A DNA stretch of 15,014 nucleotides from Candidatus Hodarchaeota archaeon (GTDB taxonomy: Archaea > Asgardarchaeota > Lokiarchaeia > Sigyniarchaeales > SOKP01): contig JBHLKM010000011.1 in the NCBI GenBank assembly GCA_048886685.1, forward strand, positions 1-15,014, in the 5' to 3' direction. Below the pieces are notes generated by a model. It worked only from the letters and a program-made list of their open reading frames with translations. It did no database searches and had not been told where the DNA came from. Position numbers and translations under genes: made by a program. Shown here in pieces: positions 1 to 15,014 of the stretch (positions within the stretch are counted from its first letter, which is position 1; every line of letters starts with the position of its first letter).

Positions 1-411
1 AAAATTGATAAAATGTTAGATTTAATTATAGATGAGAACATTGTTAAATTCAGTTATCTTAATAAACTGCAACCAGATATCCCGAAGGAGGAAAAAGATT
101 TACAAACAGCAGAACTACTAGAAAATATTCTAAATGATATCTGTGATAAACTTTTTGACAGAGATATGAAACCAGCCTTAAAGAAATTTATAACCGAATA
201 CATCAACTTTTTATACTCAAAATTTCAAAAAGAATCTTATGCAGATAAATTAATTGATAAATTCAAAGGGTTAGCATTCCAGAATTTAATTAGTTTAAGT
301 TTGGATGATTATGAGAAAATAAAGAAAGAAAAAACCAAATTAACCTCGATTTTAAGAGATTATCCGAAATATGTTATTCTGGATGAAATAAAAAAAAAAT
401 TGAAAAAATAA
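1..411 (+). CDS. Hypothetical helical protein, probably the 3' end of a longer gene entering from the left edge
   Basis: The ORF track gives 13..411, but the frame is open from base 1 (AAA ATT GAT AAA ATG), so the true start may lie outside the window. Charged amphipathic sequence with no recognisable motif. Confidence 0.6.
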   Translation, partial: KIDKMLDLIIDENIVKFSYLNKLQPDIPKEEKDLQTAELLENILNDICDKLFDRDMKPALKKFITEYINFLYSKFQKESYADKLIDKFKGLAFQNLISLSLDDYEKIKKEKTKLTSILRDYPKYVILDEIKKKLKK

Positions 412-509: not shown

Positions 510-764
510 ATGAGATTATCAGTAGAAGATACAAGAACTGGTAAGCGAATAAAGTTAGATGTGAAAGAACATCACATAATAGAACGTATTATAGAAATTG
601 TTGTTAAACATATGGGCTTTATTAGCTCAGAACAACGTTCTTATGCATTAGTCTATAAGGAGAAAGAGTTACCGAACGCGATAACTATTAAGGATGCAAT
701 CCATAAATTTGGTTTGAAAGAATATGATATTTTGATGCTTTGGACAAAAGTAATTGGAGGTTAA
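510..764 (+). CDS. Ubiquitin-like (beta-grasp) protein modifier with mature C-terminal Gly-Gly
   Basis: 84 aa ending VIGG-stop. TRTGKRIKLDV aligns with ubiquitin TLTGKTITLEV and LVYKEKEL with LIFAGKQL. Adjacent to E2, E1 and JAMM genes. Confidence 0.92.
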   Translation: MRLSVEDTRTGKRIKLDVKEHHIIERIIEIVVKHMGFISSEQRSYALVYKEKELPNAITIKDAIHKFGLKEYDILMLWTKVIGG

Positions 765-778
765 TAATAAAAGTTTCT

Positions 779-1354
779 TTACTCCTTAATAATAATTATT
801 TCATCCTCCTCATCAACTTTTTTCTCTTTTTCTTCTTCATCACTTTTAAAATTTCTTTTAAGTTCTTCCATTGAATTGTTTTTAAAGAACTCAGCAGCTT
901 CAATACAGATATTATATTGAAGTGGATCCTCAGGATTGGGGTTTTCTACTAATTTTTCTAATGATTTAACTGTAGTTTCTAAATCTGATAATCTTGACCA
1001 TTGTCTTAAAACATTTAAGCAAATATAACCAGTCCCTAGATTATTTGTATCTCTTAATTCAACGGGATGTATATTTGGGTGAAAAATATTTGAATACCAA
1101 GCAAAATCTATTCCCCCTGGATATGGAAAAGATCTGTTAATTTTAATGAAAATTCGGTGTTTTAATTGGGGTTTCACTTTGATTTTTTCCATTTTATTCA
1201 CTACAACAAATCCTAAGGCATTCAAATTGATCCATAATTCTACATTATTTTCTTGCCACCTTGCCGAATTTTCTTCAATGACTTTCATATGTTTTAGAAT
1301 TTTAATTTCATTATTTATTCGTTCTTTCCATATCTCAAATGGTAATTCCGGCAT
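779..1354 (-). CDS. Ubiquitin-conjugating enzyme E2 (UBC fold) with acidic C-terminal tail
   Basis: FPYP motif, FHPNI (H92-P93-N94), GYICLNVL with catalytic Cys112, downstream W, and NPNPEDPL. All are UBC signatures. Confidence 0.95.
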   Translation of the reverse strand: MPELPFEIWKERINNEIKILKHMKVIEENSARWQENNVELWINLNALGFVVVNKMEKIKVKPQLKHRIFIKINRSFPYPGGIDFAWYSNIFHPNIHPVELRDTNNLGTGYICLNVLRQWSRLSDLETTVKSLEKLVENPNPEDPLQYNICIEAAEFFKNNSMEELKRNFKSDEEEKEKKVDEEDEIIIIKE

Positions 1355-1383: not shown

Positions 1384-2292
1384 TTAAATGATTTTATTCT
1401 TTGATTTTTTATATGAACAGGTCCAACAATTCGGATCTTTTAATTTATCAATAATAGTGAAATCATTGGTAAGTCCATTATATATTAGTTGTTTTCCAAT
1501 AATCGGTTCTCCTACACTAGGATTCCATTTTTTATGTTTTTTAAAGTAGTCAACACCGAGTAAAAATTTAAGAACTTGTTGTGATTGAATTCCCCCTATT
1601 ATCGAAGTAGTTGTTATGATCGTTGCTATTTTGCTTGTAGTTTCACCATCTTCGGATTTTATTTCTTCTCCAGTACATGAAAATTTTTTCCACATTAAAT
1701 CCAAATCTTGATTAGAAATCCCGCATTGTAAACAAGCTGAATCTCTTATCCCCGAATATACTGCCTGTACTGAACCAAAAAATCCATCTATTCCAGAATC
1801 AACAAAAGGAACTTCATAATAATATGCGTAATTATTTGCTTCTAATCGTGCTTCAAGATTATCTAAGCAAGAACATATTACATCACATTGGCTATAGAGA
1901 TTTTTATCTATCGCGTTTAAATCCTTTTTAATAGGAATTATGTTAACTTCAGGATTTAAGTCTTTACAAGCTTCCTTAATGACATCTGCTTTATATTCCT
2001 TATTGTCTGCAGCTTTAGGATTAAATAATACACCACGACTTAAATTTGAAGTTTCGATGAAATCATAATCAATTAATAATATTTTTCCTACGCCAGTTAG
2101 GGTTAAATTTTTTACAACTTCATTTCCAGTTGCTCCAGCACCAATAACCATGATCATAGCATTCGATATTTTAGCTTGATCCCATCCACTAATTCTTTTT
2201 TGACGATCAAATCTATCTGAATCTATATATTCTTCTCCAATAACATCAATATCATTATTTACTTTTTTACGCACCATATTTAATAAAATCAA
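1384..2292 (-). CDS. Ubiquitin-activating enzyme E1 (ThiF/MoeB-family adenylation domain with Zn site and candidate catalytic Cys)
   Basis: RFDRQ, GAGATG nucleotide-binding loop, DYD..SNLSR, CLDNLEAR, CxxC pairs (C187/C190 and C289/C292) and FSCT Cys206 in the crossover loop. TTG start; the ATG five codons later is an alternative. Confidence 0.95.
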   Translation of the reverse strand: MILLNMVRKKVNNDIDVIGEEYIDSDRFDRQKRISGWDQAKISNAMIMVIGAGATGNEVVKNLTLTGVGKILLIDYDFIETSNLSRGVLFNPKAADNKEYKADVIKEACKDLNPEVNIIPIKKDLNAIDKNLYSQCDVICSCLDNLEARLEANNYAYYYEVPFVDSGIDGFFGSVQAVYSGIRDSACLQCGISNQDLDLMWKKFSCTGEEIKSEDGETTSKIATIITTTSIIGGIQSQQVLKFLLGVDYFKKHKKWNPSVGEPIIGKQLIYNGLTNDFTIIDKLKDPNCWTCSYKKSKNKII

Positions 2293-2301
2293 ATTAATTA
2301 A

Positions 2302-2796
2302 TCAATTTGATGAGATAATTGCACTACTTACAGCTTTATATTTTTTGATAGAATCCTTGTTTAGTGTAAAAAATTTATGTACTTCTCGAATTGGATCTAC
2401 TACTAACGCAACTTGGTAAGATTCAGGAAAAAAAGATTCTTGGGTATGAATATCAGTTGCGGATAAAAAGCTACCTAAACCAATATGAGAATGCCACCAT
2501 CCTACCACTCGCAAATCTTTATCTTTTCTTCTGAGTTTTAATTTTTGAAATTCTTTTTCAAAATCTCCTGCGGTTCCCTCAATTTGGGACGTGATATATT
2601 TATCACTTCTTACTGCATTTTTTACATAAATTTGGTCTTTAATAATAATATATTTTTTGTTTTCCCATTTTAGTATCAAACCAATTAAATAACCAAAAAT
2701 TTCCCTATCTATATTTCTACATAATGTTTTAACTTGATTCAAAATATCTTCATGAATATATACGGGAAATACAAAATCCTTTTCGAGTGATGTCAA
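2302..2796 (-). CDS. JAMM/MPN+ metalloprotease (Rpn11/CSN5-like deubiquitylase)
   Basis: EIFGYLIG carries the catalytic Glu; VVGWWHSHIGLGSFLSATD is an intact HxHx7Sx2D motif; ALVVDP follows. Ends 9 nt from the E1 start on the same strand. Confidence 0.95.
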   Translation of the reverse strand: MTSLEKDFVFPVYIHEDILNQVKTLCRNIDREIFGYLIGLILKWENKKYIIIKDQIYVKNAVRSDKYITSQIEGTAGDFEKEFQKLKLRRKDKDLRVVGWWHSHIGLGSFLSATDIHTQESFFPESYQVALVVDPIREVHKFFTLNKDSIKKYKAVSSAIISSN

Positions 2797-2879: not shown

Positions 2880-3881
2880 TTAATTTAATTTATTAAAGGT
2901 TTTCAATGCCCATTCTGCCTCTTTTTCATAACCCCCATCTTTATACAATTTAATTGCTTTTTCAATCAAATTCCTTATTTTTGGATAATATTTTTCCTTT
3001 CTATTAACCGCACCGGATTTATCAAAGTCTAAGCTAAGTTTTAAAGCTTCACAAAAAATTGAATTTCCTAAAACTAATAATTTTAATTTCTTATCAGAAA
3101 GATGTTCATTGGCTTGATTAAAGAAATTATTTGCTTCTAAAAATTTTTGTGTATTCTTGTATTCCTCAGCAAGTTCCATGCATTCCCATGCCTTACATAG
3201 ATAATATAATGCAGAAATTTCCTCTTGAGCTTGCTCAGAACAAAGTTTTTTGAATTTAGATGCTGCAATTGAAAACTTCTTTGCTGATGAGAAAAAATTT
3301 CCTTCTTTTTCAAATATTCTTGCTTCTTCTATTTCAGACAAGATATTTTTAATATCCTCTTTTTCAATGGAATGAAGTTTTTCCAGATTTGATATTTTGA
3401 GGATTTCCTTAATAATAGCAATTATACCATCCTTAGAATCTTCTTGAATCGCTGAAAATCCAAATGTTTTTTCCTTTAATATATTTTCAACTTTTTCTAC
3501 ACTAAAAGAAATTGATTTTCTATCTTGAAAGTTAGCAATAATATAAAAATCGATTTCAGGTAATTTGTCTCTTAATTCTAATAATAACTCTGCTGTATTT
3601 CCAATATTTCTCTCAGTTGAATCTGTAACAATACAGATAATATCAATAGATCGTAGTAATTCCCAATATGAAACAAAATTATTTGTTAAATCTCTTAAAT
3701 CTATTTCTCTTAAAATGCACGGTTCTACACCTTCTAAATAGGGTACATCAACTGGTTTCTGAAGAATCTCATTTAAATCATCATCTAATTCTAAAATAAT
3801 TTCACCTGGAAATAGATCTAATATTGTTGTTTTTCCCACACCGCTTTCTCCAGTAAGTAGTATATTAAGAGGATTTGCCAC
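2880..3881 (-). CDS. Ras-superfamily small GTPase-like domain (degenerate) fused to a C-terminal TPR/SNAP-like helical domain
   Basis: G1 GESGVGKTT; ICIVTDST strand; G4-like ANFQD; G5-like FSA; no DxxG. The C-terminal half has helical Ala/aromatic repeats (SAKKFSIAA, EANNFFNQA, AIKLYKDGG). GTG start. Confidence 0.8.
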   Translation of the reverse strand: MANPLNILLTGESGVGKTTILDLFPGEIILELDDDLNEILQKPVDVPYLEGVEPCILREIDLRDLTNNFVSYWELLRSIDIICIVTDSTERNIGNTAELLLELRDKLPEIDFYIIANFQDRKSISFSVEKVENILKEKTFGFSAIQEDSKDGIIAIIKEILKISNLEKLHSIEKEDIKNILSEIEEARIFEKEGNFFSSAKKFSIAASKFKKLCSEQAQEEISALYYLCKAWECMELAEEYKNTQKFLEANNFFNQANEHLSDKKLKLLVLGNSIFCEALKLSLDFDKSGAVNRKEKYYPKIRNLIEKAIKLYKDGGYEKEAEWALKTFNKLN

Positions 3882-4159: not shown

Positions 4160-4369
4160 TTACAATCTAATTGTAGAATATTCTTCTCTAATTTTTAGAT
4201 AAATTATTAGTCCTATGAAAAAGGGGATTAACCAAATCACCAAGATCCAAGTAAAGGCATTCATATCTCTTTTTTGAGCATCTTTATAAACCCATATTGT
4301 TATAAGGGACAAAATAGAAAAAGGAATTGTTAAAAAAATTATAAGAAGTAATATCAATAGATTAATCAT
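4160..4369 (-). CDS. Small membrane protein, PLDc N-terminal (PLDc_N-like) domain
   Basis: Hydrophobic helices around WVYKDAQKRDMN..W and GLIIYL, the typical pattern of this family. GGAG Shine-Dalgarno-like motif upstream. Confidence 0.75.
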   Translation of the reverse strand: MINLLILLLIIFLTIPFSILSLITIWVYKDAQKRDMNAFTWILVIWLIPFFIGLIIYLKIREEYSTIRL

Positions 4370-4398: not shown

Positions 4399-5424
4399 TT
4401 AATTTTTCTTATTATTTAATTTATCAATTTTTACAGGCTTGGATTCGTCAAACGGGGTTTCACAAACCCAACACGTATTTTCTAAATTGGTTAATGCTTC
4501 TGAACACTTTACACAATAGAAAGCATTACATTTAGGACAAACATAATTTAATCTCGAAACCTTACTTTTACAAACTAAACATAATCCTTTTTCTCTGTAT
4601 AATTCAATTTCCTCAACTGTTATTGTTGAAGGTTTAGTAAAAATTTTTATAAAATCTTTAAGCTCTTCTTTAACAACCAGAGTTGAACTTTGTGGAGTTC
4701 GAATTTGCTTAGTTATATGAACTATTATATAGATAATTACAGCAACTAGAACAATAATCGAAATCCAAATTATTAATTGACTTATAATAAACAATGGTAA
4801 ATTTGTAAAAACTGTTAATCCTAAGAAAACTAAAATTCCTGCAATTGAGATTAAAACTAGCCAGTTAGCTACATGACTCGAAAAAAACTCCAGATCTATA
4901 ACTATTGGAAATATTGCAGTTAGAGCACCTATTACAATAAAAACTGATGGTATTGCTGGAGAGATAAGATTTAATTCTTTTATTGCCGTCGTTTCGAAAG
5001 CCCATCCTATCAAAACCATAGCAAATCCAATTGTCACTACTGAAGAAATTATTTGAAATTCTTTTTTTGATTTTATAGAAAACCAAATAAACATAATACT
5101 TAAAGATATTATACTTATAAGGATATAAACAAAAAAATATAAATAAAAATAAAGAAGAATATAGTTTTCAATTTCATAAGTTTGGATTATTATGCTTAAA
5201 TCTCCTGTATAAGTTCCTTCTAAGAAATAATCGGAAAAATAAAAGAATGTACGAGTTATAGCTATACTCAACCAAAAGCTTGCAAATCCATACATTAAAA
5301 CTTTTTCATGGATAATCTCTTTCTTACGACCATGGTCCAAATAAAATAAACTACTAACCATTAGTAAAATTATTGCTATACTAGAAAAAAAACGCTCAAT
5401 AGGATCAAAAACAATAAGAAGAAT
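4399..5424 (-). CDS. Multi-pass (6-7 TM) membrane protein with C-terminal C4C4 RING/PHD-like zinc finger
   Basis: The track ORF is 4399..5361; the frame extends 21 codons upstream to an ATT at 5424, behind GGTGAT. The C-terminus has CLVC-x10-CPKC-x4-CVKC-x10-CWVC (4462-4581). The start position is uncertain. Confidence 0.85.
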   Translation of the reverse strand: MLLIVFDPIERFFSSIAIILLMVSSLFYLDHGRKKEIIHEKVLMYGFASFWLSIAITRTFFYFSDYFLEGTYTGDLSIIIQTYEIENYILLYFYLYFFVYILISIISLSIMFIWFSIKSKKEFQIISSVVTIGFAMVLIGWAFETTAIKELNLISPAIPSVFIVIGALTAIFPIVIDLEFFSSHVANWLVLISIAGILVFLGLTVFTNLPLFIISQLIIWISIIVLVAVIIYIIVHITKQIRTPQSSTLVVKEELKDFIKIFTKPSTITVEEIELYREKGLCLVCKSKVSRLNYVCPKCNAFYCVKCSEALTNLENTCWVCETPFDESKPVKIDKLNNKKN

Positions 5425-5591: not shown

Positions 5592-6593
5592 ATGGCACAT
5601 AAATCTATAAAAACAATAATTATAATGGTTATTGTTTGTTTCAGTTTAATTTTTACTATCCCAATTGTTATCCTATCAACTACTCTTTCTCCCTATGGTA
5701 AAATTATTAAATCTATTCGATTCGATTATAAACCTTCGAGCCCTTCATTTATGGAAGAATTGAACATTAATGCGGATTTAGGGAATATTGAAATAAAATA
5801 TATCACTGAACCAGTAGATTATTGTGTAAGAATAAAAATAAATATTGAGATGATTGGTTCAAACTTAGCTGGAAAATCATATTTTGATTATTTTAATATT
5901 GTTTGGCAAAATACTAGCGGTATTGTAAATTTTACTATGAAGCTAAAAACAAATATAGACCACGTTGAAGTATTATCCGTAATAAAGAATGTTAACATAA
6001 CGGTAGCTCTTAAAGCAGATGTAATTTGTGATATAAATGCACTTATATATTTCCAAGGAAATGTTGGTATAACAGTTCCATGGAGGTTTACTATTGGTAA
6101 CATCTTAATAAATATTTCAAAAGGCGATATTAACTATTACTTTTCAAATTGTATTATAGAAGGAGAAATAACGGGAATTGTCCAAGAAACAGGGAGTATA
6201 AAATTAGAAACGAATAACGTTGAATACAAGAACAATAGTTTATGGACTCTTACTGCTGAAATTGGAAACATTGTTATAGAAATCAATCAAGATAAAACTA
6301 TGGGTGCGAATATAACTGGTACAGTCGTGACAAACATAGGAAATTATAGATTGGTTTATTTAGATAATAATGTGGATGTTGGTGCTCAATTTATATTATG
6401 TGCAAATCAAGATGATGTACCATTCCATCAAAAACTTACTGAAATCGTCGGATTTGAAGAGCCTGTGTTAAATGTTGTTGATGGAATTGATGTTTATACA
6501 TTAAACTCTAATGATTATCCGACATTAAATAATTATAATTTATCTTTTAGTTTACCAAATGGTTATTATGATATCGATCTTCAAAATAGTTGA
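5592..6593 (+). CDS. Membrane-anchored extracellular beta-strand-rich protein (DUF4097/adhesin-like)
   Basis: Single N-terminal hydrophobic helix followed by repeated units such as INADLGNIEI, INISKGDIN, LTAEIGNIVI and VVTNIGNYRL. Many N-x-S/T sequons. Confidence 0.7.
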   Translation: MAHKSIKTIIIMVIVCFSLIFTIPIVILSTTLSPYGKIIKSIRFDYKPSSPSFMEELNINADLGNIEIKYITEPVDYCVRIKINIEMIGSNLAGKSYFDYFNIVWQNTSGIVNFTMKLKTNIDHVEVLSVIKNVNITVALKADVICDINALIYFQGNVGITVPWRFTIGNILINISKGDINYYFSNCIIEGEITGIVQETGSIKLETNNVEYKNNSLWTLTAEIGNIVIEINQDKTMGANITGTVVTNIGNYRLVYLDNNVDVGAQFILCANQDDVPFHQKLTEIVGFEEPVLNVVDGIDVYTLNSNDYPTLNNYNLSFSLPNGYYDIDLQNS

Positions 6594-6675: not shown

Positions 6676-8496
6676 TTAATCCTTGAAATACATGTTTTTA
6701 TATTTTGAACAAAAATGATTAAATTGTAACCCCTTTACATTAGATCGATAAATGTTAAAATGATGTTTGCTATAAAGATAACACATTGGAAAAACCTCTT
6801 CAATTAACCTTTTTTGAATTTGGTAATATAATTCTTCCCTCACGGTTTCGTTAGTTTCTCCTATAGCTTCTTCCATCCTTTGCTGTGTTAGAGCGTCATT
6901 AACTTGACAATAATTTAAATCTAACGATTTATTTGAACATAAGATATTGATAATACTACTAGGATCATTAAAATTAGGAACAAAATTCATCCAGCCAATT
7001 TCAACCATGTTCAAGTGATAAGGAGGTATTTCCATATATATATTAAAATATTCTCCAATTGTTACATTGGCATCTACTACTTTGATACCTATTTGTTTTA
7101 AATTTTCCGTTAAAATAGCCAAAAGCGTATCAGAAAATGGTGATGGAATAGTTGTATAGTTGTATGTAACTAGGGGGGTCCCATCATCTACTAGCTTTCC
7201 CCATTCATTACCCACAGAAACATTATCATCAGCAGTTAAGGCTCCAGCTATTCCAGCCCAGTTAACGTCTTTTAGCGTTTGTCGCGCCATTGAAACATTA
7301 TAGTAAGGAATATCAATATTGGTAGTATTTGAATATAATATTCCTTCTGGTATGGGAGATTTAAGCCTTGTTCCATGACCATTTAACCATTTATCAATAA
7401 AAGCTGAGTAATTAAAAGCATATGAGATTGCTTTTCTCATAGTTACATTGAGTAATTCGTTGTTCATTATTAGATAACAAAAGACCGTAGCTGGGGGTCC
7501 TTCTTCCACTATAATATCAGGATGATTTATAAATGTGTCTAGGAGGTCTTTATCATAATAGATATTATTGACGTAGTCTGTATCCATTAATAACTCTACG
7601 TTTCCACTCAAAACTGAAAGATCTCCCGATAATATCGCATCATATCTAGCTTCATTAGTATCATAATTTTTGAATATTAATTTATCAATCTGGGGTTTGT
7701 CGCCCCAATAGTTTGGATTGGAAGATAATGTGGTATTTATACTAAAGGAAAAATTTATAATTGGATTATATACAAAGGTAGTTGAATCATAAATAAATGG
7801 ACCCGTTCCGATTATCTTTTCAGTTAGGTGATCAATAAAAAGATCACTTGGGGTGGAAGTAGGAGATAATATAAATGCAGTATGAGACGCTAATAATGCA
7901 GTGAGGGGAACATAGGGCTTATTTAATATAATCTTCACATTATAATCTCCATCGGATTCCGTCCTGTTTATAATTCGATTTTTATAATTCGTTCGATTCC
8001 CATCGGGAAATATCCAAAATTGTGCCTTCGTCCAATGCATTTTACCATTGTCGATTAAAGCGTATATCCTTTTAATATTCCATTGAACTGCTGCAGCATT
8101 AAATGCAGTTCCATCATGGAACTGAACCCCTTGTCTTAGTTCACATGTTAATTCTGTATAATTTCCATTCCATGTATGATTAATAGCAAGGTTATGAATT
8201 ACACGAGACTGTTCACCAGCAATGTTATGAGTAAATAATCCTTCAGCAGCTTGACTTATTATCTCATAATCAGTTGGAGCCCAAGTTTGAAGAGGATCAA
8301 TCCCAATACCTAAACCCATATATGACACATAAAGAATTTTTTTTTTTGGTATTTTTGTAAAAATAACTATTCCACCAATAATTCCTGCTATAGCTACAAC
8401 AGCAATTATTCCAAGACCTAAAATTGGTTTTTTCTTTAACAATCGGACTTCCTTTTTAGGAAGTTTTTTCTTTGGTGCTTTATGATCTATACTCAT
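6676..8496 (-). CDS. ABC transporter substrate-binding protein, family 5 (DppA/OppA-like), N-terminally membrane-anchored
   Basis: EGLF, LRQGVQFHDGTAFNAAAVQWN, GTGPF, NPNYWG, MRKAISYAFN, LKQIGIKV and REELYYQIQ are family-5 motifs. A basic stretch plus TM helix forms the N-terminus. Confidence 0.93.
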   Translation of the reverse strand: MSIDHKAPKKKLPKKEVRLLKKKPILGLGIIAVVAIAGIIGGIVIFTKIPKKKILYVSYMGLGIGIDPLQTWAPTDYEIISQAAEGLFTHNIAGEQSRVIHNLAINHTWNGNYTELTCELRQGVQFHDGTAFNAAAVQWNIKRIYALIDNGKMHWTKAQFWIFPDGNRTNYKNRIINRTESDGDYNVKIILNKPYVPLTALLASHTAFILSPTSTPSDLFIDHLTEKIIGTGPFIYDSTTFVYNPIINFSFSINTTLSSNPNYWGDKPQIDKLIFKNYDTNEARYDAILSGDLSVLSGNVELLMDTDYVNNIYYDKDLLDTFINHPDIIVEEGPPATVFCYLIMNNELLNVTMRKAISYAFNYSAFIDKWLNGHGTRLKSPIPEGILYSNTTNIDIPYYNVSMARQTLKDVNWAGIAGALTADDNVSVGNEWGKLVDDGTPLVTYNYTTIPSPFSDTLLAILTENLKQIGIKVVDANVTIGEYFNIYMEIPPYHLNMVEIGWMNFVPNFNDPSSIINILCSNKSLDLNYCQVNDALTQQRMEEAIGETNETVREELYYQIQKRLIEEVFPMCYLYSKHHFNIYRSNVKGLQFNHFCSKYKNMYFKD

Positions 8497-8918: not shown

Positions 8919-9659
8919 TTAATACAATTTTATGAAGTTGCAAGGCCATATTGGCCAAAATGGATCTATAAAATTATATCCCTTCTTTGCGGATCCATAC
9001 GTAGCTCCTACTACTTTTGCAACATCTCCAAGCTCTAAACCATTCCAGTCATTAACCATTTCTCCTTTACCTGTACCGATAAAGAGCACGCTTACAAACT
9101 CCAATCCAAACTCATACCACATAAGAGCATCAAAAGCAAGAGGCAAATATCCAGGTAGTATAACATACCCTGTCTCATCATCAAAGCCATCATCATCTAA
9201 CCATGGTACTAACCAAGGCGGCCATTCTTCTAAATCAACTATGAATCTTAACTGAAATATATAATCCATTTTCCCTACAAATAGTGTGATGATATTACTA
9301 GGATCAGGATCATATGTTTCGACTAGTACCGGCGCTCCTTTTACTCGTATGTGGACTGTTATCATATGTCTTCCATCAGGCAATTCTCTTTCAAGGATGT
9401 GTCCATGATAATCGCACTCCAATATAGATACGAAATTCCAATAAGGATCATATTCGCGATGTGGGCAGATTACTAACTGTTCTGAAGCCCAATATCCTAT
9501 ATGATCATTTAAAGGAGTTACGCCATCAACTGATATGAGCCAATCATCTTCGAGAGATCTTTTTATAGTACCGTGTCCCAGAACTGTAGGTAAAAAGCAA
9601 ATTACTAAGAGCCCTAGAGCTACACTTAATAAAATTTTTTTATTTTTCATTTTTTTCAT
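8919..9659 (-). CDS. Secreted hypothetical protein with signal peptide
   Basis: MKKMKNKK, a hydrophobic core, then TVLG as a likely cleavage region. AAGAGG lies directly before the first ATG. The mature part is rich in Trp, Pro and Asp; no family recognised. Confidence 0.8.
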   Translation of the reverse strand: MKKMKNKKILLSVALGLLVICFLPTVLGHGTIKRSLEDDWLISVDGVTPLNDHIGYWASEQLVICPHREYDPYWNFVSILECDYHGHILERELPDGRHMITVHIRVKGAPVLVETYDPDPSNIITLFVGKMDYIFQLRFIVDLEEWPPWLVPWLDDDGFDDETGYVILPGYLPLAFDALMWYEFGLEFVSVLFIGTGKGEMVNDWNGLELGDVAKVVGATYGSAKKGYNFIDPFWPIWPCNFIKLY

Positions 9660-9710
9660 CCTCTTTCTTTTTTTAAATTAGTGTTAACTGAAATTTAACA
9701 CACAAATTAA

Positions 9711-9751
9711 TTTTTAGATTTAGCTTCGAAACTTTACACAAAGCTCGAATA
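9711..9751 (-). promoter_or_regulatory. Conserved ~41-bp inverted-repeat element (copy 2) upstream of the secreted-protein gene
   Basis: The minus strand reads tattcgagctttgtgtaaagtttcgaagctaaatctaaaaa, 36/41 identical to 422-462. It ends 51 nt before the ATG at 9659. Confidence 0.6.
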
Positions 9752-9866: not shown

Positions 9867-10574
9867 TTAGTTAAGAATAAAATACATTCTTCGGTTATTT
9901 TTCCCCTTGTTTACTGTCTTAATTACCTCAATTTTTCCAATTTCGGAGAGGCGGTTGACATGAGTCCCACCATCCACTTGTTTATCGATATCTCCTATAT
10001 TTACAATGCGAAATTCTTTAATATTTTTAGGTAATCCTACAGCTAATCGAGCTAATTCTGGTTTTCTTAGAACATCTTGTCTTGCCATATATTCTACGGT
10101 AATAGGCAGATCTTGCTCTATAATTTTATTGGCTTCATCTACATACGTTATTAATTTTTCTGGGGAATAATCAATCATAGAAAAATCCATTCTTGTTTTG
10201 TCTAATTCAATTTGATTACCTGTTATCTTAGCACCGGCTCTATTATAGAGTATATTTGAAATAAGATGAGATGCTGTGTGATATCGCATATATGTATATC
10301 TTCGTTCCCAATCTAACTCACAAGAAACTATATCACCTTCTTTCAATCCCGGTTTATCAACTTCGTGGCTAATTTCTCCAGAAAATTTACCAACGTAAAC
10401 AACTCTATACTTTTCATTATCCTTAATAATATAACCCTCATCCCAATTTTGTCCACCCCCTTTAGGGTAGAAGGCGGTTTGATCAAGTATAATAAATTTT
10501 CCATCTTTAACGTTAGTAACCTTGGCATCCCAACTTTTAAGATAGGAATCATCCATATATAACGCTCTTGCCAT
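9867..10574 (-). CDS. alaXM: Alanyl-tRNA editing protein AlaX (AlaX-M type)
   Basis: LYMDDSYL, LDQTAFYPKGGGQ, LDWERRY..MRYHTASH (HxxxH) and DGGTHV. 235 aa, with no aminoacylation domain. Confidence 0.93.
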   Translation of the reverse strand: MARALYMDDSYLKSWDAKVTNVKDGKFIILDQTAFYPKGGGQNWDEGYIIKDNEKYRVVYVGKFSGEISHEVDKPGLKEGDIVSCELDWERRYTYMRYHTASHLISNILYNRAGAKITGNQIELDKTRMDFSMIDYSPEKLITYVDEANKIIEQDLPITVEYMARQDVLRKPELARLAVGLPKNIKEFRIVNIGDIDKQVDGGTHVNRLSEIGKIEVIKTVNKGKNNRRMYFILN

Positions 10575-11143: not shown

Positions 11144-12190
11144 TTGATCTTCATGAAATCTGTCGAATGGGCTGGTTCTAAATTTGAAGTTAAAAATGGC
11201 TTCCTTGATTTAGGTCTCTTAGAAATTAAAAATATTGAGGAAATTATTGGCTTAGATAAATTAAAAGATCTTATTAATTTAGAACTTAGCTCTAATGAAA
11301 TCGTTGTAATAAGGGGGTTAGACAATCTAACAGAATTGGAGATTCTAAATTTAGGGAGCAATAAAATAAGAGAAATAAAAGGATTAGACAAACTTGAGAA
11401 TCTTAAAATCTTGCATTTAATAAGCAATGAAATTAAAGAACTTAAAGGATTGCAAAATTTAACTAATTTAAAAGAATTATATCTTAGAGGAAACCAAATT
11501 GAAGAGTTAAAAGGTTTAGAAAATCTTACTTCTCTTCAGAGATTAGATTTATCATGGAACAACATCTCAAAAATCCAAGGACTCGATAATTTGGGTAACC
11601 TCGAAGTTTTATGGATTGCAGGAAATCAATTGCAGAAAATTGAAAACTTAGATAATCAAAAGAATCTACAAGTTTTAAATGTAGCAGGAAATCAAATAAA
11701 AAGTATAGATGGATTTGAAAATTTGAAGAATTTAAAAAGTCTTTATCTTAACAATAATTTAATTTCAGAAATAAAAAATCTTGAAGCATTAGAAAATTTG
11801 GAAACGCTTTGGCTAAATTCAAACGAAATTTCAGAAATAAAGGGATTACGTAACTGCAAGGAATTAAAAATCTTAAATTTAAAACAAAATAAAATCAACC
11901 ATATTAAGGGTTTATATTCTCTCACAAATTTGGAGAATCTTTTTCTTTCAGAAAATAATATAGGTGAAATTAAAGGATTAGAACCACTCATAAAATTGGA
12001 AACACTTGATTTGGGCCAAAATAAGATAATTCAAGTTAAGGGTTTAGAATCTTTATTTAATTTAAAAGATTTATGGATTGCAGAGAATTTGATACCTCAA
12101 AAAATAATTGATCAATTGGGAGGTTTAGATTCTGGCGGGTGTGCAAATGAACCCTTAAAATTTGTTCAATATTGTCTTGTGAACCTTTAA
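11144..12190 (+). CDS. Leucine-rich repeat protein, SDS22-like 22-residue repeats
   Basis: About 12 complete LxxLxLxxNxIxxIxGLxxLxx repeats plus degenerate terminal ones. The start may be the ATG at 11153 rather than the TTG at 11144. Confidence 0.93.
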   Translation: MIFMKSVEWAGSKFEVKNGFLDLGLLEIKNIEEIIGLDKLKDLINLELSSNEIVVIRGLDNLTELEILNLGSNKIREIKGLDKLENLKILHLISNEIKELKGLQNLTNLKELYLRGNQIEELKGLENLTSLQRLDLSWNNISKIQGLDNLGNLEVLWIAGNQLQKIENLDNQKNLQVLNVAGNQIKSIDGFENLKNLKSLYLNNNLISEIKNLEALENLETLWLNSNEISEIKGLRNCKELKILNLKQNKINHIKGLYSLTNLENLFLSENNIGEIKGLEPLIKLETLDLGQNKIIQVKGLESLFNLKDLWIAENLIPQKIIDQLGGLDSGGCANEPLKFVQYCLVNL

Positions 12191-12581: not shown

Positions 12582-13835
12582 TTGATAGATATTAATCCTT
12601 TTGAAAGTGCGAAAAAAAAACTCGACATTGCAGCTGAAGTAATTGATTTAAATCCTAACACTCTTGAATATTTGAAAAAAGTAGAAAGATCTTTAATTGT
12701 ATCTATGCCTGTCATGATGGATGATGGTTCACTTGAAATTTTTGAAGGTTATAGAGTGCATCATTCAACCTTACGTGGACCTGCGAAAGGTGGTTTGAGA
12801 TATTCCCCAGATGTAACCTTGGATGAGATAAAAGCACTTGCTTTCTTAATGACATTTAAAACCAGTCTTTTAGGTTTACCTTTAGGAGGATCTAAGGGGG
12901 GAATCTGTGTAGACAGGAAGAAATTATCCTATAATGAGTTAAGAAAACTTACGAGAAGATATACTTCCGAAGTTCTAAATATGATCGGACCGGATATCGA
13001 TATTCTTGCTCCAGATATGAATACTGATGAGCAGATCATGGCCTGGATAATGGATACATACAGTATGAACAAGGGAAGGTCTGTTCCAGGAGTCGTAACT
13101 GGAAAACCAATTGAAATTGGAGGAACTGTAGGGAGAACCGAAGCCCCTGGGACAGGAATGTATTATATTCTCCAGTCTTTATGTGAAAGAGAAAATTTTA
13201 GTTTAACATCAAGTAAAGTAGCAATTCAGGGATTCGGAAAAGTAGGGAGAGTAGTTGCTCAAATATTAAATGATGTTGGTTGTAAAATCATCGCCATCAC
13301 AGATTCAGAAGGAGGAATTCATTCTGAGAAAGGTTTAAACATTAATAAACTAATTAGTTGGAAATTACAAGGTAATTCATTGAAGGATTATAAAGAAAAC
13401 ACTGTTAAAATTATTACAAACAAAGACTTATTCAGAACGAAGTGTGACATTCTTATCCCCGCAGCAACAGAAAATCAGATTTTTAGTGGGAATGCAAATG
13501 AAATTGATTGCCATATTATCTTAGAGGGTGCTAATAGCCCTACAACATCGAAAGCAGACGCTATTTTAAATGAAAAAGGGATAATTGTAATTCCAGATAT
13601 TCTAGCAAATGCAGGTGGTTTATCTGTTTCCTATTTTGAATACATTCAAGACATACATTCATACTTTTGGAACCTTGAAAGAGTAAATAATGAAATGAAA
13701 CGAATTTTACTTAGAGCTTTTGAATTCATTCTAAACTTATCAAGCGATAGAGAGATATCATATCGTACTGCTGCTTATGCAATAGGAGCAGAAAGATTAG
13801 CTAAAGCACATGAATTGAGGGGGTTATTTCCATGA
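12582..13835 (+). CDS. gdhA: Glutamate dehydrogenase (Glu/Leu/Phe/Val dehydrogenase family), copy 1
   Basis: GPAKGGLRY, MTFK, LPLGGSKGG, APDMNT, VTGKP, QGFGKVG, EGAN, PDILANAGG and SYFEY. TTG start. Confidence 0.95.
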   Translation: MIDINPFESAKKKLDIAAEVIDLNPNTLEYLKKVERSLIVSMPVMMDDGSLEIFEGYRVHHSTLRGPAKGGLRYSPDVTLDEIKALAFLMTFKTSLLGLPLGGSKGGICVDRKKLSYNELRKLTRRYTSEVLNMIGPDIDILAPDMNTDEQIMAWIMDTYSMNKGRSVPGVVTGKPIEIGGTVGRTEAPGTGMYYILQSLCERENFSLTSSKVAIQGFGKVGRVVAQILNDVGCKIIAITDSEGGIHSEKGLNINKLISWKLQGNSLKDYKENTVKIITNKDLFRTKCDILIPAATENQIFSGNANEIDCHIILEGANSPTTSKADAILNEKGIIVIPDILANAGGLSVSYFEYIQDIHSYFWNLERVNNEMKRILLRAFEFILNLSSDREISYRTAAYAIGAERLAKAHELRGLFP

Positions 13836-14395
13836 AGTTAATGAAAATTTATTTGAAATTTAATAGAATTCTAAAGGTGAAAAATTATAGAATTAAATCC
13901 ATTTGAAGTAGCAAAAAAACAAATTGATATTGTAGCAGAAGAAATGGGATTAGATCCTAATGTCACTAAATTTCTTAAAAGGGTTGAAAGAGCTTTAATA
14001 GTGAGCATTCCAATTATTATGGATGATGGCTCACTTCAAATTTTTGAAGGATATCGGGTTCAACATTCAACTGTGCGAGGACCAGGAAAGGGAGGTATGA
14101 GATTTGCTCCTAATGTCAACCTCAATGAAGTTAAAGCATTGGCTACATGGATGACTTGGAAGTGTAGTCTTTTAAAATTACCATTAGGAGGTGCTAAAGG
14201 AGGAATATGCGTAAATCCAAGAGAATTATCAAGAAATGAACTAGAAAAACTGACAAGAAGATTTACAACTGAGATAATAAATATTATCGGACCTGACATA
14301 GATGTACCCGCTCCAGATGTTAATACAAATGCTCAGATCATGGCCTGGATAATGGATACATACAGTATGAACAAGGGAAGATCTGTTCCAGGAGT
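13032..14395 (+). repeat. Direct repeat between gdh paralogs: 13032-13093 and 14334-14395 (61/62 identical, 47 bp perfect)
   Basis: cagatcatggcctggataatggatacatacagtatgaacaagggaag is identical in both genes, followed by one mismatch and tctgttccaggagt. The offset is 1302 nt. Confidence 0.9.
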
Positions 14396-15014
14396 AGTGA
14401 CTGGAAAACCTATAGAGATAGGAGGATCAGTAGGTAGAAATTCAGCCACAGGAATGGGTTTATATTTTGTAATTGATACCATGTGTGAAAAACTAAATAT
14501 TAAATTAGAATCTCAAACCATTATTATTCAAGGCTTCGGTAACGTAGGGGGGTGGATTGCCAAGCTATTATATGACCGGGGTTGTAAAATATTAGCTGTT
14601 TCAGATATCTCTGGTGGCCTATATCATTCTGAAGGATTAGAAATCAATAAATTATTAGAATGGACACGGGAAGGAAATTATTTGAAAGATTATAAGGATG
14701 ATAGATATAAACTTATTACTAACTCTGAATTGTTAACAACAGAATGCGATATATTAATACCAGCAGCTCTTGAAAATCAAATTACAAAAGAAAATGCGAA
14801 TAATATTAATTGTAAAATTGTATTAGAAGGCGCTAATGGCCCTACTACACCTGAAGCAGATCAAATTCTATTTGATAAAGGGATACATGTAATTCCAGAT
14901 ATTCTTGCGAATGCTGGAGGTGTATGTGTCTCATATTTTGAATATGTCCAAGATATTCATGCCTATTTTTGGGATTTAGACAGAATTAATGAAGAGTTAA
15001 AAAGGATTATGATT
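13884..15014 (+). CDS. gdhA: Glutamate dehydrogenase, copy 2 (3'-truncated by the window end; absent from the ORF track)
   Basis: The frame reads IELNPFEVAKKQ...GPGKGGMRF...MTWKC...GGAKGG...PAPDVNT...GRNSATG...QGFGNVG...EGANGP...PDILANAGG...SYFEY to the edge. The proposed start is ATT 13884; the first ATG is at 13944. Confidence 0.93.
   Translation, partial: MIELNPFEVAKKQIDIVAEEMGLDPNVTKFLKRVERALIVSIPIIMDDGSLQIFEGYRVQHSTVRGPGKGGMRFAPNVNLNEVKALATWMTWKCSLLKLPLGGAKGGICVNPRELSRNELEKLTRRFTTEIINIIGPDIDVPAPDVNTNAQIMAWIMDTYSMNKGRSVPGVVTGKPIEIGGSVGRNSATGMGLYFVIDTMCEKLNIKLESQTIIIQGFGNVGGWIAKLLYDRGCKILAVSDISGGLYHSEGLEINKLLEWTREGNYLKDYKDDRYKLITNSELLTTECDILIPAALENQITKENANNINCKIVLEGANGPTTPEADQILFDKGIHVIPDILANAGGVCVSYFEYVQDIHAYFWDLDRINEELKRIMI

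Follow-up and report, generated by a model that had tools for sequence, protein, structure and literature searches.

The 15,014-nucleotide stretch analysed here (the window; contig JBHLKM010000011.1 of assembly GCA_048886685.1, from a Candidatus Hodarchaeota archaeon of the class Lokiarchaeia) contains a cluster of genes for the conjugation of a ubiquitin-like protein (Ubl), together with a gene for a multi-pass membrane protein that ends in a C4C4 finger. The finger gene and the cluster genes lie mostly on the minus strand, in the order finger gene, TM69 (a small membrane protein), GTPase-like gene, JAMM protease, activating enzyme (E1) and conjugating enzyme (E2), with the Ubl gene alongside (Table 1; coordinates are positions in this stretch). 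The initial annotation of this DNA had noted that the finger gene shares its strand with the JAMM, E1 and E2 genes and lies about 1.6 kb from them; the distance from the stop codon of the finger gene to the start of the JAMM gene (2796) is 1603 bases. We propose that an accessory Ubl system is encoded here, comprising the Ubl, the E1, a divergent E2, the JAMM protease and small GTPases, and that the finger protein is a credible candidate for a membrane RING ligase (E3).

Table 1. Features of the finger gene, the Ubl cluster and the conserved neighbours.
Feature	Positions	Strand	Basis or remark
132-amino-acid protein adjoining the Ubl gene	13..411	+	without a match in Pfam or NCBIfam; next to Ubl in many loci
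84-amino-acid Ubl ending Gly-Gly	510..764	+	translation; weak TUG-UBL1 match
Divergent E2, UBC fold, HPN motif, Cys112, acidic tail	779..1354	-	Pfam UQ_con 40.2 bits, above cut-off; Rad6/UbcH5 matches
E1-like ThiF-family activating enzyme	1384..2292	-	Pfam ThiF E 1.6e-48
JAMM/MPN deubiquitinase-type protease	2302..2796	-	Pfam JAB E 2.7e-10, above cut-off
P-loop small-GTPase-like domain with helical C-terminal half (GTPase-TPR)	2880..3881	-	weak P-loop matches only; Arl1 E 0.054
TM69, 69-amino-acid small membrane protein	4160..4369	-	29 bases downstream of finger gene
Gene for seven-helix protein with C4C4 RING-like finger	4399..5424	-	open reading frame list, translation, conserved in-frame upstream stretch
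C4C4 finger CLVC-x10-CPKC-x4-CVKC-x10-CWVC	4462..4581	-	sequence, invariant Cys, AlphaFold2 model, RING/U-box matches, hhalign
Seven predicted transmembrane helices	4699..5403	-	AlphaFold2 helices, hydropathy, positive-inside pattern
Membrane-anchored 333-amino-acid protein	5592-6593	+	conserved neighbour upstream of finger gene
Family-5 solute-binding protein	6676-8496	-	SBP_bac_5 E 8.4e-49

The pattern CxxC-x10-CxxC-x4-CxxC-x10-CxxC, read initially at 4462-4581, was reproduced exactly by translation. Its eight cysteines are the only ones in the protein and are invariant whether 25 full-length sequences or 84 finger sequences are aligned, so that, at the level of sequence, a chance origin of the pattern is excluded; Y57 and W73 are likewise invariant across the 84 sequences. 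RING domains follow the consensus C-x2-C-x(9-39)-C-x(1-3)-[CH]-x(2-4)-[CH]-x2-C-x(4-48)-C-x2-C, and the spacing of the finger agrees with this eight-ligand arrangement. An AlphaFold2 (AF2) model of the tail, built from the 84 sequences, has the beta-beta-alpha core of a RING in one compact domain, with a block-mean predicted local distance difference test score (pLDDT) above 90 over the finger. The Foldseek matches listed for this model were mostly RINGs (TRIM37, RING1B, HRD1, Rad18 and EL5; best E 0.06). When it was compared with 48,161 chains by VIA-align, nearly all of the best 50 matches were RING or U-box domains (Z of at most 4.5; root-mean-square deviation (rmsd) typically 1.7-2.5 Å over 47-52 residues), and the rows included Prp19 (Z 4.5, rmsd 1.7, 47 aligned), RNF4 (Z 4.1, rmsd 2.0, 51 aligned), RING1B, Pex12 and HRD1.

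Profile comparisons gave a similar picture. A profile of the family searched against Protein Data Bank (PDB) sequences matched the TRIM37 RING (E 5.8e-4), the TFIIH p44 finger (0.001), RBBP6 (0.0017) and RNF4 (0.002); the finger alone, searched with phmmer against the same sequences, had marginal matches only (E at least 0.037). Among 110 family members, 38 were matched by the Pfam model zf-C3HC4_3 (best E 2.3e-5) and seven by Prok-RING_1 at E<=0.01. Aligned by hhalign with the four zf-RING_2 fingers of the same genome, the family reached 88.4% probability (E 2.8e-6) with all eight ligand positions in register; the residue aligned with ligand 5 in those fingers is His, in keeping with the initial remark that Cys takes its place here. 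The resemblance to a cross-brace RING that had been claimed from spacing has in silico support from fold matches, profile matches and the hhalign comparison, which predict this fold for the finger in preference to two ribbons.

Ahead of the finger, the AF2 model of the protein (110 sequences, mean pLDDT 84.6) has seven long helices, at residues 5-31, 35-64, 82-115, 118-140, 154-172, 181-204 and 210-239 (numbering from 5415). A hydropathy scan agrees, and both match the six hydrophobic segments, seven with the upstream extension, described at the outset. Because loops 1 and 3 and the tail are rich in Lys and Arg (a positive-inside pattern), the N-terminus is predicted to lie outside and the C-terminal finger in the cytoplasm. 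We leave the fold of the membrane domain unnamed, since its best matches fall within the noise expected of helical bundles: the adhesion-G-protein-coupled-receptor (GPCR) seven-helix domains that head the whole-model VIA-align comparison (CD97 and ADGRL3, rmsd 2.8-2.9, 151-153 aligned) reach Z 11, below a noise bound of about 13 for such bundles. Foldseek with the whole model gave no match at E<=0.001, and its bacteriorhodopsin and GPCR rows had TM-scores of at most 0.27. The Pfam model 7TMR-DISM_7TM matched one of the 110 family members, and a search of the ESM Atlas with residues 1-260 gave best scores of 0.84-0.85, with HisKA_7TM on 10% of one cluster, which we treat as a lead only. The membrane domains of Hrd1, Doa10 and Pex proteins were not among the whole-model matches listed by Foldseek and VIA-align, an absence that is no proof.

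The first of these helices is encoded upstream of the first ATG of the gene. Starting from that ATG, at 5361, the protein has 320 amino acids (open reading frame 4399..5361, minus strand); starting from a conserved ATT at 5424 it has 341. The intervening in-frame stretch (5362-5424, minus strand) lacks ATG, GTG and TTG. Its reading (..FDPxERFFSS..) is kept in frame, with synonymous changes, in most close orthologues, which carry ATT or ATC (GTG in locus L017) at the position of the 5424 start, six codons ahead of F-D-P; in a sister subclade of finger genes an ATG stands directly before [IVT]FDP or FDP. Since the upstream stretch and its ATT/ATC are conserved and the helix that it encodes is modelled with high pLDDT (block means 85-98), the gene probably starts at ATT 5424, and the comparison suggests that initiation at AUU or AUC is conserved among these orthologues.

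Relatives of the finger protein numbered 218 in a word search and 846 cluster representatives at E<=1e-3 in an exhaustive search. The named ones all come from Asgard metagenome-assembled genomes (Promethearchaeota, Lokiarchaeia and bins labelled Thor-, Hermod-, Hod- or Odinarchaeota), and the source names shown for them are all 'hypothetical protein', with the exception of one 'uncharacterized protein YpmB'. The 320-amino-acid form had no match above cut-off in Pfam or NCBIfam.

Active RING E3s meet helix 1 and loops 4 and 7 of their E2 with three elements: a hydrophobic residue that follows ligand 1, the central helix, and the residue that follows ligand 7. The initial annotation had suggested modelling the finger with the neighbouring E2, and docking through this canonical RING surface is indeed what the models predict. 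Complexes of the E2 (31-row alignment), two zinc ions and the finger (84 rows) were predicted in three runs alongside three controls; the interface score ipSAE was 0.75, 0.75 and 0.74 for the pair and 0.00 for every control, with partner pLDDT of 80-82 and at least 67% of contacts common to the runs. Of 157 solved complexes 116 reached the mark used, and of 215 mismatched pairs 2 did, a calibration that holds only roughly here, because our own alignments and two riding zinc ions were used. On the E2 side the predicted interface comprises residues 2-5, 8, 11-12, 15-16, 19, 121-122 and 124, that is, helix 1 and loop 7; loop 4 is not among the named contacts. On the finger side it comprises L37-S41, K60, C61, A64, L68, E69, W73 and V74, so that the E2 is contacted by L37, V38 and K40 in the loop that follows ligand 1, by A64, L68 and E69 in the central helix, and by W73 and V74 behind ligand 7. 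These contact residues are the most conserved positions of the finger other than its ligands (L37 in 76, V38 in 80, K40 in 82, E69 in 83 and W73 in all of the 84 sequences), and helix 1 is largely invariant among 31 E2s.

The finger gene family tracks the cluster E2 type, as far as gene order and presence or absence can tell. Loci seeded on the E2 (34 loci from 33 genomes) had a finger open reading frame within 4.4 kb in 21 cases, with up to four in tandem. In four more the finger was matched by tblastn only, three times beside the Ubl gene and once some 8.4 kb away from the E2. That leaves nine loci: in five the contig stops on the Ubl side, and in four the flanks are ample and hold no finger. 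In the E2-seeded loci the finger gene often stands immediately ahead of the Ubl gene and on its strand, the smallest gap being 66 bases. Loci seeded on the finger contained, within the DNA covered, the E2 in 24 of 75 and at least one of Ubl, E1, E2 and JAMM in 33 of 75, in several gene orders. At the 26 loci whose orthologue is at least 44% identical, TM69 followed the finger gene in 25, the GTPase-like gene was present in 22 and the 333-amino-acid protein lay upstream in 23; nearly all E2 loci have the GTPase-like gene.

Both families were also searched in one sample of 80 genomes of the class. All 33 genomes with the cluster E2 type had the finger, and none lacked it; among the 47 genomes without this E2 type the finger was absent from 40 and present in seven, three of the seven matches being weak. 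Joint presence and absence of the two vary together within two genera, and one 100% complete genome (G052) has canonical E2s and RING-H2 proteins and neither the cluster E2 type nor the finger. Finger matches ranged from 1 to 24 per genome. In a FastTree phylogeny of 95 finger proteins, which includes the E2-seeded loci and is to that extent biased towards linkage, cluster-linked genes make up 25 of the 36 rows of one clade and 26 of the 31 rows of another, deeply separated from it, to which the window gene belongs; of the remaining 28 rows, mostly paralogues of about 400 amino acids, two are linked.

Two further sequences touch on the finger family. Apart from the finger protein itself, the genome of the window has one clear match to the finger profile, a 68-amino-acid soluble protein (G000:C12:77234-77440; L077:1453-1659, plus strand) with the related finger CxxH-x10-CxxC-x4-CxxC-x10-CxxC (profile E 6.5e-9). 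In another genome (G024), a finger open reading frame beside a Ubl-E2 cluster (L096:10712-11011, minus strand) has an in-frame stop at the position of the invariant Trp (C*VC) and a 99-amino-acid open frame; decay of this copy or an error of assembly is the probable cause.

The genome of the window holds other ubiquitin machinery. Two further E2s (C13:88439-88864 and C1:131685-132161) score 91-92 bits to UQ_con, against 39.9 for the cluster E2 in the same search, and four zf-RING_2 proteins, in open frames of 114-695 amino acids, lie above the Pfam cut-off (C27:28099-28227, C4:251475-251606, C13:36421-36555 and C33:4185-4316). The two canonical E2s and the four zf-RING_2 proteins look like a core ubiquitin system separate from the cluster. 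Genomes without the cluster E2 type and the finger keep canonical E2s and RING-H2 proteins, an 84-amino-acid RING in G052 lying 2 kb from a canonical E2. The zf-RING_2 fingers of the same genome (RING-H2-like, C4HC3) resemble the membrane finger in having four residues between ligand pairs 2 and 3 and ten before the last pair; they differ in the His at ligand 5, in CPxC in place of CWVC, in a Trp within the helix and in exceeding the Pfam cut-off. Because proteins of this type also occur in genomes that lack the cluster, they probably serve the canonical E2s. With two canonical E2s and four RING-H2 proteins in the genome, the window cluster is, on sequence grounds, an accessory and patchily distributed Ubl system. 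The ideas that the finger is the only RING of the genome, or the cluster E2 its only E2, were rejected on the same counts. The description of the finger protein as a 'missing E3' can thus be kept only in the sense of a candidate E3 of the accessory cluster; for the organism as a whole it does not hold.

The remaining genes of the window add context. TM69 had only a weak PLDc_N match, under the cut-off (E 0.0016), and the acidic tail of the cluster E2 aligns with that of yeast Rad6. In related loci, the 333-amino-acid protein and the solute-binding protein often occur upstream of the finger gene as repeated pairs, in one to three copies; in the solute-binding protein of the window (6676-8496, minus strand), about 25 residues at the N-terminus, rich in Lys, precede the hydrophobic anchor. 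A 47-nucleotide element is present in two copies, at 422-468 and 9705-9751, which are 85% complementary and hold the palindrome TTCGAA-N13-TTCGAA (two matches against 0.07 expected). The Ubl gene has one copy upstream of it, and a gene for a secreted-looking protein of 246 amino acids (8919-9659, minus strand) has the other; the palindrome is absent upstream of the finger gene. Further along are a protein with an AlaX-like editing domain (9867-10574), a leucine-rich-repeat (LRR) protein (11144-12190) and two tandem Glu/Leu/Phe/Val-dehydrogenase-like paralogues (12582-13835 and 13944-15014, plus strand) with a 300-nucleotide direct repeat, 69% identical, between them. The dehydrogenase-like, LRR and AlaX-like neighbours are conserved in several related loci.

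Taken together, the sequence evidence (ligands and their conservation, order of the genes, co-occurrence) and the model predictions (RING fold, topology and E2 interface) lead us to regard the membrane finger protein as probably, with real room for doubt, the dedicated E3-type ligase of the accessory Lokiarchaeial Ubl system, or at least its E2-docking subunit; what we infer beyond this is catalysis, the substrates and any sensing role of the membrane domain. Such a system might work as follows. The E1 would load the Gly-Gly-ended Ubl onto Cys112 of the cluster E2. The RING would then bind helix 1 and loop 7 of the E2, using its central helix, the Leu/Val that follows ligand 1 and the invariant Trp that follows ligand 7. 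The charged E2, held at the membrane, could pass the Ubl to lysines on the ligase itself or on membrane proteins close by, and the JAMM protease would reverse the modification. Speculatively, the solute-binding protein with its Lys-rich tail, the anchored 333-amino-acid protein and TM69 may be clients. An extension of this scheme, which we consider rather unlikely, is that the finger proteins, as E3s, are seven-helix receptor-like proteins that each sense a ligand or client protein, within the membrane or outside it, and recruit one dedicated E2 to tag membrane proteins, with the neighbouring solute-binding and anchored surface proteins as candidate clients.

Several observations weigh against a ligase role. 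No Pfam RING model reached its cut-off for the finger (zf-C3HC4_3, 21.4 bits against 27), and the Pfam model C1_2 matched 37 of the 110 family members, about as many as zf-C3HC4_3 did, and the window protein at E 0.0025. The fold scores (Z<=4.5, Foldseek E>=0.06) are low, which is expected at about 50 residues, and are not decisive; which ligands pair at each of the two zinc sites is read from superpositions only. The finger of TFIIH p44, the closest C4C4 match in sequence, is primarily a structural module. A basic 'linchpin' after ligand 8 primes the charged E2 in many, not all, active RING E3s; at this position (76) the finger family has E in 31, N in 24, D in 17 and G in 5 of the 84 sequences, with minor others, and Arg or Lys in none. 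The passing score of the complex may reflect a likeness to solved E2-RING complexes. As for distribution, strong finger matches without the cluster E2 type occur in four genomes (G022, G066, G071 and G075), related genomes are not independent, so that the co-occurrence counts overstate the evidence, and most of the paralogues of about 400 amino acids are not near the cluster. The caution in the initial annotation, that similar fingers may be widespread with no link to this locus, was in this respect well placed: paralogues are many, and most of that group are unlinked.

Three other explanations were weighed. The RING-fold module could dock on the E2 or the Ubl without being catalytic, the membrane protein acting as substrate, receptor or scaffold, for example as tagged cargo or adaptor, and transfer falling to another protein or to the E2 alone. 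The missing basic residue after ligand 8 fits this, as do the Lys-rich tail that follows the finger, the frequent position of finger genes beside the Ubl gene rather than the E2 elsewhere, and a module of finger gene, TM69, GTPase-TPR, Ubl and 132-amino-acid protein that occurs with no E1, E2 or JAMM nearby (L003, L006-L008, L016, L020, L021 and L024). However, the predicted interface is exactly the surface with which active RINGs bind their E2, in residues that are nearly invariant, and up to 24 finger matches per genome against usually one match of the cluster E2 type is the usual pattern for E3s. We judge a purely docking role to be improbable, though the likeliest of the three alternatives.

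The other two explanations dispense with RING function altogether. A juxtamembrane zinc module, akin to C1, FYVE, B-box or TFIIH p44 fingers, might bind lipids or proteins with no part in Ubl transfer, its linkage to the cluster reflecting shared regulation or membrane biology. Sub-threshold matches to C1_2 (37 of 110 members), an ANCHR-like B-box (5), FYVE_2 (1) and a TFIIH C1-like domain (1), the p44 match at E 0.001 in the PDB profile search and the many paralogues unlinked to the cluster could be so explained. Against this, RING or U-box domains make up nearly all of the 50 best fold matches, hhalign gives 88% to bona fide zf-RING_2 fingers, the finger is found in 33 of 33 genomes with the cluster E2 type and both are lost together within genera, and the complex model passes with controls at 0.00; we hold such a module to be distinctly unlikely. 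Two sequential, independent zinc ribbons, a double ribbon of a kind common in prokaryotic membrane proteins, could account for CxxC-x10-CxxC occurring twice and for weak matches to DZR (E 0.053 for the window protein; 4 of 110 members) and DZR_2 (4 of 110). Yet the DZR score is 14.1 bits against a cut-off of 27.3, pairs 2 and 3 are only four residues apart, AF2 gives one compact beta-beta-alpha domain with high confidence that superposes on RINGs with an rmsd of about 2 Å over about 50 residues, and the eight ligands are in register with RING ligands. Zinc ribbons were not among the listed fold matches of the finger, where absence is no proof. The initial annotation had named two independent ribbons as the fold that would undo its proposal; we found nothing in support of them, and this arrangement is very improbable.

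Read as a ligase or E2-docking subunit, the finger protein has both archaeal and eukaryotic counterparts. Ligases that join a RING to a multi-pass membrane domain are considered a eukaryotic means for the quality control and sorting of membrane proteins. Hrd1/gp78, Pex2/10/12, RNF-type and Doa10/MARCH (RING-CH) ligases share with the finger protein a multi-pass membrane domain joined to a cytoplasmic RING, and the RINGs of HRD1 (6a3z, Z 4.2; 6f98, Z 3.5) and of Pex12/Pex proteins (7t9x, 7t92) are among the VIA-align matches of the finger, but its ligands are C4C4 in contrast to their RING-H2 or RING-CH sets. The likeness is one of layout only and does not speak for common descent of the whole architecture. 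CNOT4 (1ur6) and the C-terminal finger of TFIIH p44 (1z60) are, like the finger, all-Cys with four residues between ligands 4 and 5, and CNOT4 in complex with UbcH5B aligned with Z 3.5 and rmsd 2.1 over 49 residues; both are soluble nuclear or cytosolic eukaryotic proteins, with marginal sequence similarity to the finger.

The RING E3s so far known from archaeal ubiquitin operons are small RING proteins, which were purified and found active in vitro: srfp, the E3 of the ubiquitin operon of Caldiarchaeum subterraneum (PMC5654768), and the Helarchaeial RING E3 (10.1101/2023.07.25.550441). As described there, these resemble the finger protein in being archaeal RING-type fingers encoded with ubiquitin or a Ubl, E1, E2 and JAMM/Rpn11 and proposed to stimulate the E2 of the operon. 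The finger gene likewise clusters with Ubl, E1, E2 and JAMM genes, and the linkage is conserved. Unlike the E3s of these accounts, which are small, the finger protein has 341 amino acids, seven helices, C4C4 ligands, 1-24 matches per genome and a divergent E2 as its partner, and its role here is a predicted one; at 320-341 amino acids with seven predicted helices, it falls outside the small, soluble srfp type. Hatano et al. (PMC9192718), in the portion of the text available, describe separate ubiquitin and ESCRT regions in Lokiarchaeota and define E3s by the UFM1-ligase InterPro entry, and the finger family is not mentioned in that portion of the survey text. No description of the membrane finger family was found in the literature searched, although the supplementary tables of the main Asgard genome papers may list it.

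The known RING E3s of archaeal ubiquitin operons differ from the finger protein, which is polytopic and multi-copy, has an all-Cys ligand set and pairs with a divergent E2. If the proposed role is correct, it would fill the E3 position in a Lokiarchaeial cluster whose members are all named 'hypothetical protein', and would offer a compact system in which to test whether membrane-associated ubiquitin tagging arose before eukaryotes. Should the receptor-like form of the proposal hold, the module, with its small GTPases, would represent a prokaryotic forerunner of the ubiquitin-controlled turnover or sorting of membrane proteins. The setting of this candidate membrane RING system is the Asgard archaea, the closest archaeal relatives of eukaryotes, and the RING-like tail of the finger protein suggests that the tagging of proteins at membranes may be older than eukaryotes themselves.

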